Origin: an uncultured Acidobacteriaceae bacterium
Lineage (GTDB): Bacteria; Acidobacteriota; Terriglobia; Terriglobales; Acidobacteriaceae
Direction: 5' to 3'
DNA length: 64,000 nt
Assembly (NCBI GenBank): GCA_963722405.1
Contig: CAVRMO010000004.1
Span: 12,510 to 76,509, forward strand
Numbering within the stretch: position 1 is the first letter of the stretch; every line of letters begins with the position of its first letter. The notes under the pieces are model-generated. The model made no database searches, was not told where the DNA came from, and saw nothing but the letters and a program-made list of their open reading frames with translations. The position numbers and the translations under genes are program-made. This document shows positions 28,365 to 35,445 of this stretch, one piece after another.

Positions 28365-28393
28365 TTGACCTTCCGACCCTAGTTGTGTAGTGT
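28365..28393 (+). promoter_or_regulatory. Sigma70-like promoter of the cys leader transcript
   Basis: TTGACC (28365-28370), a 17-nt spacer, then TAGTGT (28388-28393). This would start transcription about 2-7 nt before ATG 28403. Confidence 0.4.
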
Positions 28394-28402
28394 CATACGA
28401 TC

Positions 28403-28489
28403 ATGTTGAGTGGTCGTCAGAATTGTTGTTGCATGCCCTGCTGTTGTTGCGGGTACACAGATTCTGACGCCTATGGAAATACCGCCTAG
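28403..28489 (+). CDS. Polycysteine leader peptide (28 aa) of the sulfite reductase operon
   Basis: The peptide is MLSGRQNCCCMPCCCCGYTDSDAYGNTA*. Seven of nine consecutive codons (28424-28450) are Cys. It has no SD, lies next to the predicted TSS, and is embedded in alternating complementary RNA segments upstream of an intrinsic terminator. Confidence 0.6.
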   Translation: MLSGRQNCCCMPCCCCGYTDSDAYGNTA

Positions 28490-28517
28490 CTTTCTTATTT
28501 AAGCAGGATTTCCCTAA

Positions 28518-28558
28518 CCCACGCGTCAGAGGCATCTGACACGTGGGTTTTTCTTTTT
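28518..28558 (+). terminator. Intrinsic terminator acting as attenuator in the 5' leader of the cys operon
   Basis: CCCACGCGTCAGA-ggca-TCTGACACGTGGG pairs at 12 of 13 positions and is followed by TTTTTCTTTTT. It sits 19 nt upstream of the sulfite-reductase ATG and 370 nt from the previous gene's stop. Confidence 0.7.
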
Positions 28559-28576
28559 GGCGCAAAGAGGTGGCGG

Positions 28577-30271
28577 ATGTCAGAAGTCGTCAAGGAAACG
28601 AAGGCGCAGCGAATCGAGCGGCTCAAACGGGAAAAGAACGCGTGGGAGTGCCTCGACGAGATTCGTGGGTTTGCCCGGAGCGGACTTGCGTCCATTCCTC
28701 CGGAATGGTTGGACACATATTTCCGCTTCTGGGGCGTGTACACGCAGGGCGACGGTGTTGGAGCGGTCGGCGGCACGGGTGGCGCGGGCAAGGCGCTTCC
28801 CTACTTCATGGTGCGCATCCGCATACCCAACGGAATCCTGCTTTCCCACCAGGTCCGGGCCATTGCCGATGTGGTTACGAAGTATGCCCGCGGCAGCGCC
28901 GATATCACGGTGCGCCAGAACGTTCAGCTGCACTGGATCACGATCGAAGACCTGCCGGAAGTGCTCGACGCATTGTGGCGCGCGGGTCTCACCACGATGG
29001 GCTCGTGTGGTGACGACGTTCGCAATATCGTTGGCTGCCCTCTGGCCGGGGTTGACGCTGACGAGATTTACGACGCCTCGCAACTGGTGGAGGAGGCGAA
29101 CCGGGAATTTGTGGGCAATTCCGAGTTCTACAACCTGCCTCGCAAATTCAAGATTTGCATTACAGGCTGTCATGCGTGGTGCTCGTATCCCGAGATCAAT
29201 GACATCGGCCTGACAGCCGTGCGAGGCAAGGACCATGAGGTTGGATTTTCCCTGCGCGTCGCGGGAGGTTTGTCGACCGACCCTCATCCGGCGAAACGGC
29301 TCGATGCATTCGTCCTGCCGGAGCAGGTGTTGCCAGTGCTCAGAGCCGTTGCGTCCATCTTTCGCGACAGCGATGTGTTGCGCGAGAACCGCGAGCGAGC
29401 ACGACTGAAGTTCCTGTTCCTGAAGCATGGATGGACGGCTGAACATTTTCTCAGCGAGCTAAACGGCCGCCTGGGATTCAAGTTGGCCCCAGCAGTTGCG
29501 GAAGACATTCCGGATGACGTGTATCGCGATCACGTAGGAGTTCACCGGCAAAAGCAGCCACGCTACGTCTACGTGGGAGCCTCTGTACTGCGGGGCCGGA
29601 TCACGGCGGCCCAACTATACGCTGCGGCCGATCTGTCTGAGCGTTACGCCGGGGGTGAGTTACGCACGACCAACATGCAGAACCTGCTGATCGTCAACGT
29701 GCCCGAGCACAACGCGGCTGCGGTTGCAGGCAGCTTGCAGCTCGCGGGCCTGCCTATTGAAGGCTCGCCCTTCGGGCGCGGCATCATCGCTTGCTCGGGG
29801 ACTGAATTCTGCAAGATTGCGATCACGGAAACCAAGTCGTTTGGACGGTGGCTGGCGGAAGAACTAGACGAGCGACTCCCGGGCTTTGAACAACACCTGA
29901 AGCTGCATGTGACGGGTTGCCCCAACAGTTGCGGCCAGCACTGGATCGCCGACCTTGGGCTAGAGGGTAAGAAGATCAAACAGAACGGGCAACTGATCGA
30001 CGCCTACTACTTTTGCGTCGGCGGCGCGGTTGGCAAACATCAGGCTATCGCGCGACCTGTTGGATATCGCTGCCCTGCCACGGAGGTGCCGGACGCCATC
30101 GAGCGCCTGTTGAATCGCTACCTGGCGGCGAGAAGTCCGGATGAGAATCTTCGGCAATTCTTCGGGCGCCATTCGAGCGAAGAGATTCGCGCCTTCCTCG
30201 CCGGTGGAGATTTCGTCGCTGTCGAGCGCGATCCAGCGGCTGGCCGCATTCCTCACGGGGTGGAAGGATGA
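28577..30271 (+). CDS. Assimilatory sulfite reductase hemoprotein (ferredoxin-type Sir/NirA/CysI family)
   Basis: The siroheme/4Fe-4S cysteine clusters are IACSGTEFCKIAITETK and HVTGCPNSCGQHWIAD. It is co-operonic with siroheme synthesis and APS reductase genes. SD GAGGTGG. Confidence 0.9.
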   Translation: MSEVVKETKAQRIERLKREKNAWECLDEIRGFARSGLASIPPEWLDTYFRFWGVYTQGDGVGAVGGTGGAGKALPYFMVRIRIPNGILLSHQVRAIADVVTKYARGSADITVRQNVQLHWITIEDLPEVLDALWRAGLTTMGSCGDDVRNIVGCPLAGVDADEIYDASQLVEEANREFVGNSEFYNLPRKFKICITGCHAWCSYPEINDIGLTAVRGKDHEVGFSLRVAGGLSTDPHPAKRLDAFVLPEQVLPVLRAVASIFRDSDVLRENRERARLKFLFLKHGWTAEHFLSELNGRLGFKLAPAVAEDIPDDVYRDHVGVHRQKQPRYVYVGASVLRGRITAAQLYAAADLSERYAGGELRTTNMQNLLIVNVPEHNAAAVAGSLQLAGLPIEGSPFGRGIIACSGTEFCKIAITETKSFGRWLAEELDERLPGFEQHLKLHVTGCPNSCGQHWIADLGLEGKKIKQNGQLIDAYYFCVGGAVGKHQAIARPVGYRCPATEVPDAIERLLNRYLAARSPDENLRQFFGRHSSEEIRAFLAGGDFVAVERDPAAGRIPHGVEG

Positions 30272-30897
30272 GCCGACGGCAGCCATCGCTGTTCCCCATA
30301 TTCGTGAAACTGGAAGGCAGGCCCTGCCTGTTAGTGGGCGGGGGCCCCATAGCGGAAGGCAAGACCACAAGCTTGTTGCGGTCGGGAGCGCGCGTGACCG
30401 TGGTTTCGCCCAAGGTGACGGCAGCCTTGCTGCACCGTGCACACCGCGATGAGATCCGGTGGGAGTCCCGCAGCTTCCAGAGCAGCGACCTCGAGGGGAC
30501 ATTCCTGGTCATTGCTGCGACGTCTAGTAGTGAAACGAATGCCATGGTTTATCGCGAAGCGGACCAGCGCGGGATTTTGTGCAATGCGGTCGATCAGCCG
30601 CAAGACTGCCACTTCTATTATCCCGCGGTTGTCGATCGCGGAGCGTTGCAAATTGCTATTTCCACGGGGGGGCTTAGTCCTTCGCTGGCGCAGCGTTTAC
30701 GGAAAGAACTGGAAGTTCAGTTCGGGCCCGAATACGAGCGGTTGGTCGAATGGCTAGGACGGGTGCGTTCGGGCTTGATGAGCCAAAGCAGCGACTTTGA
30801 ATCGCGGCGCCGCATTCTGGGCCGTCTCGCCAGCCGTGAAGTCTTCGATCGCCTGCAACGCGCGCGTGGACGCGAGCACGGGGAGGATGCGGCATGA
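30268..30897 (+). CDS. Precorrin-2 dehydrogenase / sirohydrochlorin ferrochelatase (CysG N-domain / SirC-Met8-like)
   Basis: It has a Rossmann motif (LLVGGGPIAEGK) and ISTGGLSPSLAQRLR. ATGA overlap with the upstream gene. Confidence 0.85.
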   Translation: MSRRQPSLFPIFVKLEGRPCLLVGGGPIAEGKTTSLLRSGARVTVVSPKVTAALLHRAHRDEIRWESRSFQSSDLEGTFLVIAATSSSETNAMVYREADQRGILCNAVDQPQDCHFYYPAVVDRGALQIAISTGGLSPSLAQRLRKELEVQFGPEYERLVEWLGRVRSGLMSQSSDFESRRRILGRLASREVFDRLQRARGREHGEDAA

Positions 30898-31700
30898 GGG
30901 CGAAAGTCTATCTCGTCGGCGCAGGCCCCGGCGATCCCGAGTTGTTGACAGTGAAAGCTGGCCGCCTGCTGCGATCTGCCGACATCGTTCTGCATGATGC
31001 GCTGGTCAGCGAAGAGATCCTGCAGATTGCACGCCCGAATGCGCAATTGGTGGATGTGGGCAAGCGGGTGGGAGAAAAGCGTCTGACGCAGGATGCCATC
31101 AACCAGCTCCTCGTCGATCTTTCGGGCTGCGCTGACGTAATTGTCCGGCTGAAAGGCGGCGACCCTTCGATATTCGGCCGGGCCGCGGAAGAGATGTCGG
31201 CGTTGCGGCAAGCCGGAATTGAATTTGAAGTTGTGCCCGGCGTTACCGCAGCCCTTGCTGCCGCGGCGCAGGCAGGGATCACGCTCACCGACCGCCAATC
31301 GGCCTCAGGTGTGATCTTTCTCACCGCACAACAGGCGACCGGCAAGGGGCGGACAAACATTGCGCGCTACGCCTCGCAGGACGCCACGCTGGTGATCTAT
31401 ATGCCGACGGGCCACTATCGCGAGATTCGCAGCGACCTGATCGCCGCAGGTTTGAGTCCCGAGACGCACTGCGTGGTGGTGGCGAATGCATCACGGCCGG
31501 ACCAGGAGTTGCTGTGGACCGATATCGCTGCGCTCGGGTCAATCGCCATGCTGCCATCTCCCGCTCTCCTCATCATTGGCCAGGTCGCGCGCTGCCGCAG
31601 TGAAGCGTTGGTTAGCAGCACTGGATGGCAAGGAATTCTCGGTAATGCTACGACGTTATGGCAAGAAATCGCCACGACGAAAGGGAATGGTGAATCATGA
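30894..31700 (+). CDS. cobA: Uroporphyrinogen-III C-methyltransferase
   Basis: VYLVGAGPGDPELLTVKAGRLL, RLKGGDPSIFGR and EVVPGVTAA are tetrapyrrole methylase signatures. ATGA overlap. Confidence 0.9.
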   Translation: MRAKVYLVGAGPGDPELLTVKAGRLLRSADIVLHDALVSEEILQIARPNAQLVDVGKRVGEKRLTQDAINQLLVDLSGCADVIVRLKGGDPSIFGRAAEEMSALRQAGIEFEVVPGVTAALAAAAQAGITLTDRQSASGVIFLTAQQATGKGRTNIARYASQDATLVIYMPTGHYREIRSDLIAAGLSPETHCVVVANASRPDQELLWTDIAALGSIAMLPSPALLIIGQVARCRSEALVSSTGWQGILGNATTLWQEIATTKGNGES

Positions 31701-32392
31701 GCCTGCAGACAAGTACGCGACAGTACGAGAACCTGGATGCTAAGGATGTGATTGATCGCGCACTCGCAGAAAATCGTGGATTAGCCTGTATCACGTGCAG
31801 CTTTCAGGCGGAGGGCATGGTCGTACTCAGCCTGTTGCGGAAACGGCTCCCGCATGTGCCTGTCCTCTTCCTCGATACCGGGTATCACTTCGCCGAGACC
31901 TATGGTTACCGCGATCGCATGACTCGATTGTGGGACCTGAACCTTGTCAACCTAATGCCACTCCAGTCGGTGGCCAAACAAGAATCTGATCTGGGGATTC
32001 TGTATCAGAGCAATCCCGGCCTGTGCTGCCAGCGACGCAAGGTCGAACCATTGATGAGAGCACTGGAGCCCTTCGATCTCTGGTTTACCGGATTGCGGAG
32101 AGAGCAGTCAGCAACGAGAAAGAACCTGAAGACGGTTGAAAACCATCTCCTCCCCAGCGGCAAACACTTGCTGAAAGTGAATCCACTCGCGGACTGGGAC
32201 TGGAAGAGGGTTTGGAAGTATACGGTCGAACACCAGATCGAGTACCAGCCGTTGTATGACGAAGGCTTTACCAGCATTGGTTGCGAACCCTGCACTAGTG
32301 TCCCGCTGGATGAAGCAGACCTGCGCTCGGGCCGCTGGGGTGGGGGAAGGTTGGAGTGTGGCATTCATACCTTCTCGCAAAAGGCGGAATGA
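31697..32392 (+). CDS. cysH: Adenylyl-sulfate (APS) reductase, thioredoxin-dependent, Fe-S type
   Basis: It shows the PAPS_reduct fold (FLDTGYHFAETY) and the catalytic ECGIH motif. The CC (NPGLCCQRRK) and CxxC (GCEPCT) pairs are characteristic of APS-specific enzymes. ATGA overlap. Confidence 0.85.
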   Translation: MSLQTSTRQYENLDAKDVIDRALAENRGLACITCSFQAEGMVVLSLLRKRLPHVPVLFLDTGYHFAETYGYRDRMTRLWDLNLVNLMPLQSVAKQESDLGILYQSNPGLCCQRRKVEPLMRALEPFDLWFTGLRREQSATRKNLKTVENHLLPSGKHLLKVNPLADWDWKRVWKYTVEHQIEYQPLYDEGFTSIGCEPCTSVPLDEADLRSGRWGGGRLECGIHTFSQKAE

Positions 32393-32742
32393 AGACGCGC
32401 TGTTCCAGCCTTTTCGCCGCATAGTCCGCGAACGCGGCGCCGGGCATGAGGCCCTCCCCCCCAGCGCCCGTTGTCTTGGGATCACGCATAATCTAGTCAG
32501 GAGAGATTGCCAAGCCAAAGCCTATCCGTGTCTAAAGTAAGGCATGGCATTTTTTGTCCCGCATTCGGTTGAAAGCAAAATCACGAACTAAAGTCTTTAT
32601 CTGCACTACCAGCGGAGTCCGCGAGGCTAAGTTATGTTTGGCACAAAAGCGCACAAAAGCCTCCGATGAAATTTCACTTTGGACTGGCTAAGGGCCGGTA
32701 GTTGGAATATAAGTACTGAATTCCAACCAGGGCGGATGCAAA

Positions 32743-35445
32743 GTGAATGAGTCCAGCGTCAGTGACGAAGCAAACCGTGTCTACGCCACCGCTGTCTCGC
32801 CGGGAGATACATCTGCGGCTCATCTGAATTCAACAGGCAAACGAATTCCGCGGGTTGCCATTGTTGGAGTGCATGGTGTAGGGGCACATGCACCAGGCGC
32901 TACGGAAGACGCGATGGCGAACTTGTTGTTCTCGCTGCCGGTCCCCGAACCAAGCACTTCCCGCTACTTCGGTTCCTTCCGGTCTGTTGGCGTCCAAGTC
33001 CCTTTGCAGCCAGTTCAGGCTAAAGCGCTACCGGTCGAACGAAAGACAGGTCTCGCGGCTCGCGCAATGGATCTGTACGAGGAGCAAAGCACAAAGTTCG
33101 CAGAGTTGGCGACCGACTATGGCAAGAAGAACGAGGTAGTGGAACGTGGAAAAGCCGGAAATACGTTTATGCGTCTGCTTCTGCAAGGCTATAAAGGTGG
33201 CGCCAATACCGATGCCTACATCACTACCAGACTCGAGGGTAAGCGGAGTGCAAAAGCGCCGGGCGGGGAAGCCGATGTCCACATCTATGAAGTGCTCTGG
33301 GCCGACCTCGCCCAGCCTGACAGCACAATTCTGACTTTCTTGCTTGCTCTATTTCAGTTGGTCCTGCACCTGGCTAGCCTCAGCCGCCTCGCCATCGATA
33401 CCGGTTCAGCGGAGAACACCGGACCTTTGTGGCAGGTCTACCTCGCTATGCAGAGGTATGCAGTCCGCATGCTGCAGATTTTCATTCCATTAGCGAAGGT
33501 TGTCCTGCTGGTCGTAATCTTCTCTTGTATCCCCGCGCTACTTAGTAAGAAGTACGACCTGAGCTGGTTCCCTATCTTGATGCTCGCACTTGCGGGCATC
33601 GCTATCAGCTTTCTTATTTTGAGTCGGAGCCAGAAACCGGTCAGGTCCCACCCGTGGCTTTGGGCATTGCTCGCCCTGGTACCAGGAATTTTAGGGGCCG
33701 CCGTAGGGTGGCTGTTGAGCAGGTACACGAATCCAACCGTTGCTGGCTCTATCGCCTGTTGGCTTTTTCTGGGTGTTCCACTCTTGTTCTATGTGCTGCA
33801 CAACTATGAAGATGTGCGAAAGGGCGTGGAGGTTACGGGATGTCTGGTGTATGGCGTCTGTTTCCTGATTTTTATTGGATACCTGCCCCTCGCCTCAGCC
33901 AAGTGGGCTCCTGAAGCCGCACTCTGGCAGGTTCCCCAAGCCACATTCTGGACGGCCGAGTGGTTGATCGCTTCACTTCGGGCTTCCTGGATGCTACTGA
34001 TTATTTTCGCATTTCTGGCTCTCTTGCTTGGCACCGTGGCCTGTTGGCGTCAGAAGGATACCCCCAAGCGGGCGCGCGTCCGGGCGGCAGTACGCACCGG
34101 CCAGTTCGCCCTTGCGCTGCCCGCGCTGCTGTTTCTGCTGATTACCTCGATGATATGGGCCGGGATGTTCTCGATTGCAAGATGGGTGCACAAGCCGTTT
34201 TTCGAAGAGCGCTTGCTGACGTCACCCCCAGGGGGAGAACGGCTGCTTACCCTGCATCTCATTCCCAACCCGGGTCTCGTCGCCGAGCAGGTTCCGGATC
34301 CGAATGCCAAGGCCGACCCGTGCGCCACCACCCCTCCTTGTTCCGTACCCACACATGCGGACTATCTGCCGGGGATCCTCGCCTGGAGCGTGGGCTACCA
34401 GCTTCCTATCACGCTGGCTCTCTTTGGTCTCGCGCTTTTCTTGCTGGTCTGGTGGATACTGCCGGGCGCAAACACGGAAAGATTTCCGCTTCGCAACAAG
34501 AGTGAGCCGCCGCGAAGCTCGACCAACGCACAGTCGGTGCGGCTAGGCACCTGGAACTCGCGTGGCCTGGATGCCATCTCGGTGATAAGCGCCTTGTTCT
34601 GGTGCGCTATTTTCGTGGCGCCGCTGGCGTTCTATTTCCTGCCAGGTATGTGGCAATCGTATTTTCGGGAGGGGACAGTCCAGATCGTCTTTGTGTGGGC
34701 GGGAACATTCGCCATTCTTGGCGCCACGGTGGCAGCGATTGTGAGGTACGGCAGTTTGATCTTGAGGGCCGTTCTGGATGTCGACACTTACCTGCGTGCT
34801 TCACCGGCAGTTGCCACGCCCCGGGCCCAGATCGTGGAACGGTACGTGTCGACCCTGCGTTACCTGGCACGGTATCGGGATGCCGACGGACGCGGCTATG
34901 ACTCGGTGGTGATTGTCGCGCACAGTTTGGGAGCTTTGATTTCCGGGGACCTCCTTCACTTCCTTTATTCAGATGGCGATCCTCACCTGGCAGCCTTCGG
35001 ACTTTCTGGGGACCAGAAACCCGGCACGATTCCAATCAGCTTGCTAACTATGGGGAATCCAACCCGCCAGCTCTTGAACCGGTTTTTCCCATATCTCTAC
35101 GACTGGGTGCGCGCTGAGCCCGACAACGGACTGCATCCGCTTCCGGATCCAGCCACAGTACCTCCAGTTGCCATATCGGCTCACGCGTTGCCGGACCCGC
35201 GGGAGTTGGGAGTAGCCAAGTGGTTGAACACCTACCGCAGCGGCGATTACATTGGTCGGTCACTGTGGCTCGAAGAGTGGTACGGCCGGACAGGCGGCAA
35301 ACCAGAGGAAGGCCGCTATCCGCAGCCGATTCACGTGGTCCATGGCGATCGCCGTACTGAGATGTGCATCGGTGCTGGAGCCCACACCCACTATTGGGAC
35401 GACACCGCACCGGATGTTGCCGAACTGCTGAACTCGTTAATCTAG
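32743..35445 (+). CDS. Large polytopic membrane protein with lipase/esterase-like (alpha/beta-hydrolase) motifs split between the N and C termini
   Basis: The N-terminus has RVAIVGVHGVGAH and YEVLWADL. About 10-11 hydrophobic helices follow. The C-terminus has a nucleophile elbow (VVIVAHSLGALISGD) and later SGDYIG and GAGAHTHYW. GTG start. Confidence 0.75.
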   Translation: MNESSVSDEANRVYATAVSPGDTSAAHLNSTGKRIPRVAIVGVHGVGAHAPGATEDAMANLLFSLPVPEPSTSRYFGSFRSVGVQVPLQPVQAKALPVERKTGLAARAMDLYEEQSTKFAELATDYGKKNEVVERGKAGNTFMRLLLQGYKGGANTDAYITTRLEGKRSAKAPGGEADVHIYEVLWADLAQPDSTILTFLLALFQLVLHLASLSRLAIDTGSAENTGPLWQVYLAMQRYAVRMLQIFIPLAKVVLLVVIFSCIPALLSKKYDLSWFPILMLALAGIAISFLILSRSQKPVRSHPWLWALLALVPGILGAAVGWLLSRYTNPTVAGSIACWLFLGVPLLFYVLHNYEDVRKGVEVTGCLVYGVCFLIFIGYLPLASAKWAPEAALWQVPQATFWTAEWLIASLRASWMLLIIFAFLALLLGTVACWRQKDTPKRARVRAAVRTGQFALALPALLFLLITSMIWAGMFSIARWVHKPFFEERLLTSPPGGERLLTLHLIPNPGLVAEQVPDPNAKADPCATTPPCSVPTHADYLPGILAWSVGYQLPITLALFGLALFLLVWWILPGANTERFPLRNKSEPPRSSTNAQSVRLGTWNSRGLDAISVISALFWCAIFVAPLAFYFLPGMWQSYFREGTVQIVFVWAGTFAILGATVAAIVRYGSLILRAVLDVDTYLRASPAVATPRAQIVERYVSTLRYLARYRDADGRGYDSVVIVAHSLGALISGDLLHFLYSDGDPHLAAFGLSGDQKPGTIPISLLTMGNPTRQLLNRFFPYLYDWVRAEPDNGLHPLPDPATVPPVAISAHALPDPRELGVAKWLNTYRSGDYIGRSLWLEEWYGRTGGKPEEGRYPQPIHVVHGDRRTEMCIGAGAHTHYWDDTAPDVAELLNSLI

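Follow-up and report, generated by a model that had tools for sequence, protein, structure and literature searches.

A polycysteine leader peptide in a predicted cysteine-sensing transcription attenuator upstream of the sulfite reductase operon of Terriglobia

Why should a sulfite reductase gene be preceded by a short reading frame made up largely of cysteine codons? The question is raised by a 64,000-nucleotide (nt) stretch of contig CAVRMO010000004.1 (assembly GCA_963722405.1) from an uncultured Acidobacteriaceae bacterium (Terriglobia, Acidobacteriota), hereafter the window, in which a leader with such an upstream open reading frame (uORF) lies directly in front of the operon sir-sirC-cobA-cysH. 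An original prediction, made from this DNA alone, had proposed that the uORF and four complementary RNA segments control the operon by attenuation in response to cysteine. Our analysis supports this proposal in all the parts that can be tested in silico (conservation, folds and compensatory changes), and we consider it likely that the leader is a ribosome-mediated transcription attenuator of the trp/his type, which would sense cysteine through charged tRNA-Cys and control sir-sirC-cobA-cysH.

The polycysteine reading frame and its conservation

The uORF (28403-28489, + strand; stop codon at 28487-28489) has 28 codons and encodes MLSGRQNCCCMPCCCCGYTDSDAYGNTA. Its putative sensor, seven Cys codons in nine (28424-28450, +; tgt tgt tgc atg ccc tgc tgt tgt tgc), occupies codon positions 8-16 and is the single occurrence of this Cys density in the six frames of the 64 kb window. 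No second polycysteine ORF was found in the window, where the next-best stretch, with five Cys in nine codons, is a minus-strand one that falls inside genes or out of frame with them; in 778 kb of related loci, too, five in nine is nowhere exceeded outside these leaders. A candidate promoter can be read from the sequence at 28365-28393 (+), with a -35 element TTGACC (28365-28370), a 17-nt spacer and a -10 element TAGTGT (28388-28393) that ends 9 nt from the leader ATG at 28403. From the spacing between the -10 element and the ATG, we predict a leaderless or almost leaderless mRNA, with a 5' untranslated region of about 0-4 nt. All the bases and coordinates originally given for the promoter, the uORF, the Cys run, the four RNA segments, the U run, the Shine-Dalgarno (SD) sequence and the sir start codon at 28577 agree with the DNA.

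One genome per species was scanned with the Sir protein, which gave 80 loci, nearly all from Terriglobia, whose Sir proteins are 65-88% identical to that of the window. The uORF turns out to be a conserved leader, as a Cys-rich short ORF ends 60-170 nt before sir in 75 of these 80 genomes (74 loci plus L003), with 4-8 Cys in nine codons. The typical peptide of the main clade reads M..NLRA.CCCTCCCCACVCSGAGRLLT, and the variant of the window is common to its two closest genomes (L001 and L002). Across the leaders, the positions of the ATG, the stop codon and the frame relative to the RNA helices are conserved. A covariance model was built from 32 leaders of the main clade, to which the window does not belong. 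It detects 71 of the 80 species loci and has exactly one match in the window, which covers the model at full length (28395-28555, +; 46.1 bits, E = 5.3e-10). Taking genomes and metagenome contigs together, the leader design is present in more than 140 relatives. One genome (L065) has a degenerate leader only, with three Cys in nine codons and no covariance-model match. In two others (L018 and L030), a small CxxC...CxxC ORF, zinc-ribbon-like, stands upstream of sir in place of a polycysteine leader.

The signals that surround the reading frame are conserved as well. A TTGAC element, followed after 17 or 18 nt by TAnnnT, occurs at the homologous position in 65 of 74 related loci, with TAGAAT as the commonest -10 sequence, and in 45 of the 65 loci with such a promoter the distance from the -10 element to the ATG is 9-10 nt. 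SD-like motifs were seen before the uORF in 4 of 71 loci and before sir in 10 of 71 (start positions being approximate). The near-leaderless start that had been proposed for the uORF thus gains from a conserved promoter 9-10 nt before its ATG, while the missing SD sequence, the other argument for it, carries little weight. The Cys codons themselves are peculiar in their composition: TGT accounts for 62% of them, but for 10% of those in sir in the same genomes, an enrichment in a wobble-read codon that recalls the rare codons of other attenuator leaders. TGT and TGC alternate synonymously from leader to leader, and the identity of the amino acid is kept.

Alternative RNA structures in the leader

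We folded the leader with ViennaRNA by minimum free energy (MFE) and mimicked the ribosome by constraints or masking. Segment 1 (CGTCAGAAT, 28415-28423, +) is the 5' strand of a protector hairpin in which it pairs with segment 2 (ATTCTGACGC, 28461-28470, +; core CTGACG) through nine Watson-Crick pairs, one G-U pair and two further G-C pairs after a bulge (-22.3 kcal/mol). Segment 3 (28516-28530, +, with CCCACGCGTCAGA at 28518-28530) is the 5' arm of the putative terminator, and segment 4 (28535-28549, +, with TCTGACACGTGGG at 28535-28547) its 3' arm; the two pair over 14 bp with one C/A mismatch (28516-28549, -23.6 kcal/mol), and the U run of an intrinsic terminator, TTTTTCTTTTT (28548-28558, +), follows directly 3'. 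Segment 2 can pair alternatively with segment 3, in 9 bp (28462-28470 with 28523-31). Nested inside this 2:3 helix is a middle hairpin (28475-28513, +; -10.8 kcal/mol) that carries the stop codon of the uORF in its upper part. This hairpin was absent from the original prediction, and the antiterminator is better described as the 2:3 helix plus the nested stop-codon hairpin; because the stop codon sits inside it, a terminating ribosome would dismantle the antiterminator directly.

The region from 28395 to 28560 folds to -60.6 kcal/mol, compared with -42.3 +/- 4.0 kcal/mol for 200 dinucleotide shuffles, none of which folds as well (z = -4.59; 0/200), and its MFE structure is the terminated state, with the 1:2 and middle hairpins upstream of a 3:4 hairpin that adjoins the U run. 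The hairpin pattern CCCAC...GTGGGYTTT has one match in the window against 0.03 expected, and neither a second copy of the leader hairpin nor a second covariance-model match was found elsewhere in the window. In the absence of a ribosome, the 1:2 helix, the middle hairpin and the terminator all form. When the Cys run is masked and the transcript is cut before segment 4, segments 2 and 3 pair so as to enclose the middle hairpin (-22.0 kcal/mol), and when the ribosome is placed at the stop codon, 1:2 re-forms and so does the terminator. Among these folds, the 2:3 helix is obtained with the Cys run masked, and the four-segment logic that had been proposed is reproduced by constrained folds both in the window and in the family.

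The same architecture recurs among the relatives. The stem and U run of the terminator are conserved in all 74 aligned leaders, and in 74 of 74 loci the stretch of segment 2 used by the 1:2 helix overlaps the stretch used by 2:3; the median duplex energies over these loci (RNAduplex) are -26 kcal/mol for 1:2, -17 for 2:3 and -26 for 3:4, with median z values of about -2 against shuffles. When the ribosome is stalled, the terminator's 5' arm has 5 nt or more paired to the uORF in 73 of 74 loci; with no ribosome this is so in 44 of 74, and with the ribosome at the stop codon in 31 of 74. Since the 5' half of the leader aligns poorly between clades, RNAalifold on a broad MAFFT alignment (A1) recovered the terminator only, and this alignment was replaced by a 32-sequence alignment of a single clade (A2) with hand-defined structures. 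In A2 the terminated state is 88% paired, compared with 42-53% when the partners are slid along the sequence, and the antiterminated state (2:3, a GGG:CCC extension and the helix that encloses the stop codon) is 91% paired, compared with 36-51% for slid partners. The main-clade counterpart of the middle hairpin is 94.6% paired, with two pairs changed on both sides.

Compensatory changes are seen when the clades are compared. In the main clade, segment 2 is (N)CTGGCGCGGGGAGG, read as the codons S-G-A-G-R inside the uORF, segment 3 is CCCA(C/T)CGCCAG and segment 4 is CTGGCGGTGGG, followed by the U run. Written as the mutually complementary parts of segments 1 to 4, the window's clade has CGTCAGA, TCTGACG, CGTCAGA and TCTGAC-A-CG where the other clades have CGCCAGA, TCTGGCG, CGCCAGA and TCTGGCGG, and this change in all four segments together entails the replacement of a Gly by an Asp in the leader peptide. 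In this sense the core of segment 2, CTGGCG in the family, has become CTGACG in the window with its pairing compensated. L015 offers another compensated pair in the 2:3 helix (CTGGCA with TGCCAG), other loci keep the pairing by G-U, and within the window's own clade one 1:2 pair (in 28421-23 / 28461-63) covaries, being U-A in the window, C-G in L001 and U-G in L002. The alternative pairings first noticed in one sequence are kept in evolution, with compensatory changes.

Could the conserved product be the peptide itself? A functional Cys-rich small protein, which might bind metal or an Fe-S cluster or act in redox reactions and be co-expressed with the sulfite reductase while the hairpins are incidental or form a leaky terminator, would account for the conservation of ORF length, position and Cys content, and the C-terminal sequence ..SGAGRLLT is indeed conserved in the main clade. 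However, this C-terminal conservation is explained at the level of RNA. The codon before the core of segment 2 varies (Ser, Thr, Ala or Pro) with its last two bases, CT, fixed, and the third base of the Gly codon GGC in segment 2 is almost invariant, which indicates that the constraint on this segment acts on the RNA and not on the peptide; the Gly-to-Asp change that comes with compensation in the window's clade points in the same direction. Outside the Cys run, moreover, the peptide of the window is unlike that of the main clade, and the leaders of the same architecture but rich in Thr and Ile that precede aspartokinase genes (see below) fit a codon sensor and not a protein product. We regard a small-protein function as highly improbable.

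An RNA switch that binds a ligand or a protein, such as a riboswitch, a T-box-like element or the target of an attenuation protein, would make the Cys-rich frame irrelevant and would likewise be expected to show strong structure with mutually exclusive helices, as this leader does (z = -4.6). Against such a switch, a search of Rfam at E up to 1 gave no relevant match, T-box elements, SAM riboswitches and Thr, His, Leu and Trp leaders included, in the window between 27000 and 30000, nor any match in five related loci (two with Cys leaders and three with aspartokinase leaders). The best-conserved property of the 5' half is the identity of the Cys codons in the face of synonymous variation, which points to decoding, and the conserved positions of frame, start codon and stop codon relative to the helices also speak for translation as the signal. 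We therefore find a switch of this kind very unlikely. About equally remote, in our judgement, is the idea that translation of the uORF governs Rho-dependent polarity or mRNA stability instead of intrinsic termination: Rho was proposed for Cys leaders that lack hairpin terminators (Seliverstov et al. 2005, PMC1262725), but here a strong and conserved intrinsic terminator is present, together with a conserved competitor for its 5' arm.

A further alternative comes from mycobacteria, where the leader Ms5788A, the sole polycysteine leader dissected experimentally, acts on translation by SD masking through a single very stable duplex, with no pair of terminator and antiterminator (Canestrari et al. 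2020, bioRxiv 10.1101/834739). By analogy, the leader structure could hide the ribosome-binding site of sir until a ribosome stalled at Cys codons opens it, the hairpin not being mainly a terminator. In several relatives the ATG of sir lies only 0-10 nt after the U run, where the hairpin could also hinder initiation. In the window, however, the SD sequence of sir (GAGGTGG, 28567-28573) and its ATG at 28577 (together 28567-28579, +) lie 18-28 nt beyond the hairpin and are unpaired with the leader; across the loci, sir begins anywhere from -2 to 99 nt after the U run, so that a fixed helix masking the SD sequence is not maintained, whereas a canonical stem with a U run is. SD masking was rejected for the window on these grounds (an unpaired sir SD sequence and a variable spacing between leader and gene), and we see little probability for translational attenuation here. 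As for the relatives in which the ATG of sir follows the U run within 0-10 nt (L004, L005, L007, L011, L013, L019, L033, L063 and others), they have no SD-like motif there; initiation at sir seems to be largely SD-independent in Terriglobia, and the terminator hairpin could affect it where the ATG adjoins the U run.

Transcription attenuation, our preferred explanation, would work as follows. From the features described above we infer a transcription start, translation of the uORF, ribosome stalling, termination and a response to cysteine. Transcription would start a few nt before the ATG at 28403, and a ribosome would begin the 28-codon leader as RNA polymerase moves on. If Cys-tRNA is scarce, the ribosome would stall at the first Cys codons (28424 onward), covering segment 1 and freeing segment 2 (28461-28470), which could then pair with segment 3 (28523-31) around the nested middle hairpin; with the 5' arm of the terminator held in this way while segment 4 and the U run are made, the polymerase would read into sir. 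If Cys-tRNA is plentiful, the ribosome would reach the stop codon, melt the middle hairpin and cover the sequence directly 3' of segment 2; behind it, segment 1 would re-pair with segment 2, leaving segment 3 free for segment 4, and transcription would terminate at 28548-28558. Without any translation, 1:2 and 3:4 would form and termination would again result. The four sequence-level hallmarks of a trp/his-type attenuator, namely a run of cognate codons, an intrinsic terminator, an antiterminator and a 1:2 hairpin, are all recognized in the leader in silico.

Several observations weigh against this interpretation. The -10 element of the window, TAGTGT, is weak, agreeing with TATAAT at only three of six positions, and the terminator stem has an internal mismatch; a scan for consensus promoters and terminators called neither the promoter nor the terminator of the leader, although this is due to its strict rules, given those two deviations, and not to absence of the features. 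The lack of an SD sequence before the uORF is weak evidence and not diagnostic, because the sir genes of this lineage mostly lack one too, and for that reason "no SD" was rejected as proof of leaderless translation. The terminator and middle hairpin together reach about -34 kcal/mol compared with -22 kcal/mol for the antiterminator, and in full-length folds the terminator is thermodynamically favoured even with a stalled ribosome. Because the terminator is the more stable structure, read-through would have to be kinetic, as in the trp attenuator. In MFE folds cut before segment 4 and made without a ribosome, segment 3 pairs with the uORF in 44 of 74 loci. Covariation within the main clade is thin, the cores there being nearly invariant, which is to be expected of bases that each take part in two helices and a codon; the pairings are supported mostly by conservation, by the slid controls and by a small number of compensations between clades. 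Finally, five of the 80 loci (L018, L030, L046, L048 and L057) have no polycysteine leader and no match to the model.

The operon downstream of the leader

The genes that follow the leader fit a cysteine signal. The first, sir (28577-30271, +), encodes a siroheme/[4Fe-4S] reductase of the NirA/SirA type (Pfam NIR_SIR and NIR_SIR_ferr; NCBIfam NirA family), although its product scores below the equivalog cut-offs of the NCBIfam NirA family. Its closest relative of solved structure is NirA of M. tuberculosis (1ZJ8; E = 3.5e-85, full length), which is a sulfite reductase, and we read sir as a putative assimilatory sulfite reductase gene. It is followed by a gene for a protein of the siroheme synthase N-terminal type (precorrin-2 dehydrogenase/ferrochelatase, sirC; 30268-30897, +), whose start overlaps the stop of sir; by a uroporphyrinogen-III C-methyltransferase gene recognized from domain matches (cobA, or cysG C-terminal type; 30894-31700, +); and by a gene for a CysH-type reductase of adenylyl sulfate (APS) or phosphoadenylyl sulfate (PAPS) (31697-32392, +), whose CC...CxxC motif (GLCCQ, GCEPC) is typical of APS reductases. 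The stop and start codons of the four genes overlap successively, and their products, through sulfite reduction, siroheme synthesis and APS reduction, make sulfide for cysteine.

Does the hairpin before sir belong to this operon or to the gene on its other side? Upstream of the leader lie response-regulator and histidine-kinase genes unrelated to the operon, and a terminator of the upstream gene was considered as an explanation and rejected: the upstream genes of the window are found in none of the 80 related loci (0/80), and the leader accompanies sir. Of the genes downstream of sir, sirC is present in 75, cobA in 74 and cysH in 63 of the 80 loci. Since the leader travels with sir-sirC-cobA-cysH, it belongs to the operon and not to its upstream neighbour. 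At the far end, a terminator-like hairpin with a T run (32526-32557, +), 134 nt 3' of cysH, may end the operon. The next gene (32743-35445, +) encodes a 900-amino-acid protein that has no Pfam match and stands beside the operon in none of the 80 loci.

Leaders of the same kind and known attenuators

When metagenome contigs were scanned for the terminator pattern, CCCACCGCCAG, 4-10 nt of any sequence and CTGGCGGTGGGTTTT, at least 128 matches on at least 120 contigs were obtained. Among the matches listed, 86 of 128 carry a polycysteine leader: according to an automatic check of the first ORF, 66 of these precede sir, 10 precede another or a miscalled first ORF, and in 10 the contig ends before the downstream gene. 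The rest of the matches listed comprise 30 Thr/Ile leaders before aspartokinase genes, one Thr/Ile/Val leader before an aspartate-semialdehyde dehydrogenase gene (asd) and 11 that have no polycysteine leader and lack a downstream ORF within reach. Among the matches listed, the 10 with another or a miscalled first ORF are four cysH genes, two rhodanese genes, one Porin_5 gene, two ordinary sir genes (L089 and L107, by tblastn) and one gene left unclassified.

Polycysteine leaders with the same terminator thus stand before cysH genes that are not part of a sir operon (L126, L129, L133 and L190), before a small rhodanese-domain gene (L110 and L181) and before a putative Porin_5 gene (L145). These positions hint at a multi-operon cysteine regulon driven by ribosome stalling. 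In L015, a second polycysteine ORF, MIKIPSQCCCCTAPCAGCCRPLCI (L015:8070-8144, +), lies just downstream of the sir operon of that locus and about 255 nt upstream of a gene for a TonB-dependent-receptor-like outer-membrane protein (CarboxypepD_reg, Plug and OMP beta-barrel domains; start at about L015:8399).

The leaders before the aspartokinase genes (products with AA_kinase and ACT domains) are rich in Thr and Ile, e.g. MNTxIQKATRITSTGTGMSTRITCLLEDGIG, and in this respect are of the thr type. They use the terminator stem of the Cys leaders, CCCACCGCCAG...CTGGCGGTGGG with a U run, and have a segment 2 of their own, CTTCTGG, that pairs with CCAGAAG of the stem and loop. Such leaders were found in species genomes (L045:9414-9526, -; L053:9480-9639, -; L049, L050, L034, L040, L056, L060, L062, L066, L070 and L072) and in metagenome loci (L089, L094, L104, L120, L128 and others). 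In at least 12 species genomes, a Cys leader and a Thr/Ile leader with an identical 11-bp terminator stem lie about 5.5 kb from each other, the aspartokinase gene being in many genomes on the strand opposite sir. A second, shorter type of aspartokinase (L184, L170, L192, L199 and L124) and asd (L111) are preceded by leaders rich in Thr, Ile and Lys, with the same terminator; examples are MLAIATKRITFPSTKTAKSITTTIMRTTIASGAGRNS and ..TTIVVTITVTTTVTTSASGDGRNG. In some of these loci, such as L184, the leader ORF has at its 3' end a sequence (..GGCGCGGGGAG..) very similar to segment 2 of the Cys leaders.

Cys and Thr/Ile leaders in fact have sequence around segment 2 in common: one pair of subtypes shares CGTGTCTTCTGG, and a second pair GGCGCGGGGAG. 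To us the chances appear about even that these are related attenuators of Terriglobia built on a single chassis (segment 2 ..CTGG.., segment 3 CCCACCGCCAG, segment 4 CTGGCGGTGGG and a U run), which would have multiplied by duplication, with re-coding of the leader peptide, instead of appearing anew at every operon. Otherwise, the leaders would have converged on a terminator stem that is particularly effective. If the single chassis is correct, the Cys runs before the sir operon, separate cysH genes, rhodanese and porin genes would constitute an acidobacterial cysteine 'ribulon', and the Thr/Ile runs before the two types of aspartokinase and asd would be other sensor runs set on the same chassis.

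How does the sir leader compare with known systems? Classical leader attenuators are those of enterobacterial amino-acid operons (trpL, hisL, thrL, leuL, ilvL and pheL). The leader described here resembles them in its four segments, which can pair as 1:2, 2:3 and 3:4, and in having an intrinsic terminator ahead of the first structural gene. As in those operons, a ribosome that terminates at the leader stop codon would by its position block the antiterminator, and the terminator is the more stable of the two structures. Unlike the enterobacterial leaders, the present one would sense cysteine, it belongs to Acidobacteriota, its ORF begins about 9-10 nt after the -10 element, lacks an SD sequence and is predicted to be leaderless, and the antiterminator in Terriglobia includes a nested hairpin with the stop codon. 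No relationship of the window leader to the classical attenuators was found in sequence or in Rfam.

The closest parallels in the nature of the signal are the polycysteine leaderless small open reading frames (sORFs) of mycobacteria, which are the first cistrons of cysteine-metabolism operons; one of them, Ms4527A (VTSARNSITGSLVARRHVDKRVCSCCCLP), precedes MSMEG_4527, the orthologue of Rv2391 (sirA/nirA) (Canestrari et al. 2020, bioRxiv 10.1101/834739). Both groups have consecutive Cys codons in a first cistron and probably the leaderless start in common, together with ribosome pausing at Cys codons as the signal (predicted here), and Ms4527A stands before an orthologous NirA/SirA-type reductase gene. 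The defining property of the mycobacterial elements, at least two consecutive Cys codons in an unannotated first-cistron sORF of a cysteine-related operon, is also a property of the uORF in the window. In Ms4527A, however, the Cys run is C-terminal, next to the stop codon, unlike in the window leader, and the predicted output of the latter is a canonical intrinsic terminator, unlike the SD masking of Ms5788A. BLASTP of Ms4527A against the window peptide gave no alignment at E up to 100.

Two other groups of predicted leaders are also relevant. In Rhodobacterales, uORFC-8-2 is a predicted cysteine-responsive transcription attenuator upstream of cysS (Brewer et al. 2021, PMC8632094), and, like the sir leader, it combines Cys codons in a uORF with stems and a U run at the end. 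It differs in having only two tandem Cys codons (at about positions 14-15), a two-stem consensus, a cysS gene and not a biosynthetic operon downstream, and a host among the Alphaproteobacteria. The window leader falls outside that family, with sir downstream, seven of nine Cys at positions 8-16 and an unrelated sequence and structure; it has no Rfam match, although the presence of uORFC-8-2 in Rfam 15 was not checked. In Actinobacteria, candidate Cys-rich leader peptides before cys and cbs operons were predicted without conserved terminator hairpins, and the authors suggested Rho but did not settle how regulation works (Seliverstov et al. 2005, PMC1262725). Like the present case, those leaders are a comparative-genomic prediction of Cys runs before cysteine genes; unlike them, all four elements of an attenuator are conserved here.

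According to Canestrari et al. (2020, 10.1101/834739), uORF-mediated attenuation for cysteine was, to their knowledge, undescribed. In the literature that we searched, which covers subscription journals poorly, there was neither a report from Acidobacteria nor a polycysteine leader with an explicit terminator on a sulfate-assimilation operon. The remark on novelty that accompanied the original prediction agrees with this literature, in which mycobacterial polycysteine sORFs are known and the dissected case is translational. The principle of attenuation and the sensing of cysteine through polycysteine runs were both known already; what the sequence and folding evidence supports as new is a polycysteine and probably leaderless attenuator of the classical terminator/antiterminator type that is predicted to act on a sulfate-assimilation operon.

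Cysteine has long been a conspicuous gap among the amino acids sensed by classical attenuation, and the predicted attenuator of Terriglobia is a textbook-clear transcriptional version of such sensing, placed on a core sulfate-assimilation operon and available for analysis in more than 140 natural sequence variants. The leader could be of use in two other ways: a polycysteine leader is a direct way to annotate a NirA-like gene as encoding a sulfite and not a nitrite reductase, and it offers a ready-made cysteine-responsive genetic part. The terminator stem common to Cys and Thr/Ile leaders provides in addition a rare chance to study the origin and re-targeting of attenuators. Acidobacteriota are an abundant soil phylum that is poorly studied genetically, and almost none of the attenuators predicted in them has an assigned function. 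The leader is conserved across this major soil lineage, whose cells very probably use it to gauge their cysteine supply by how fast a ribosome moves along it.

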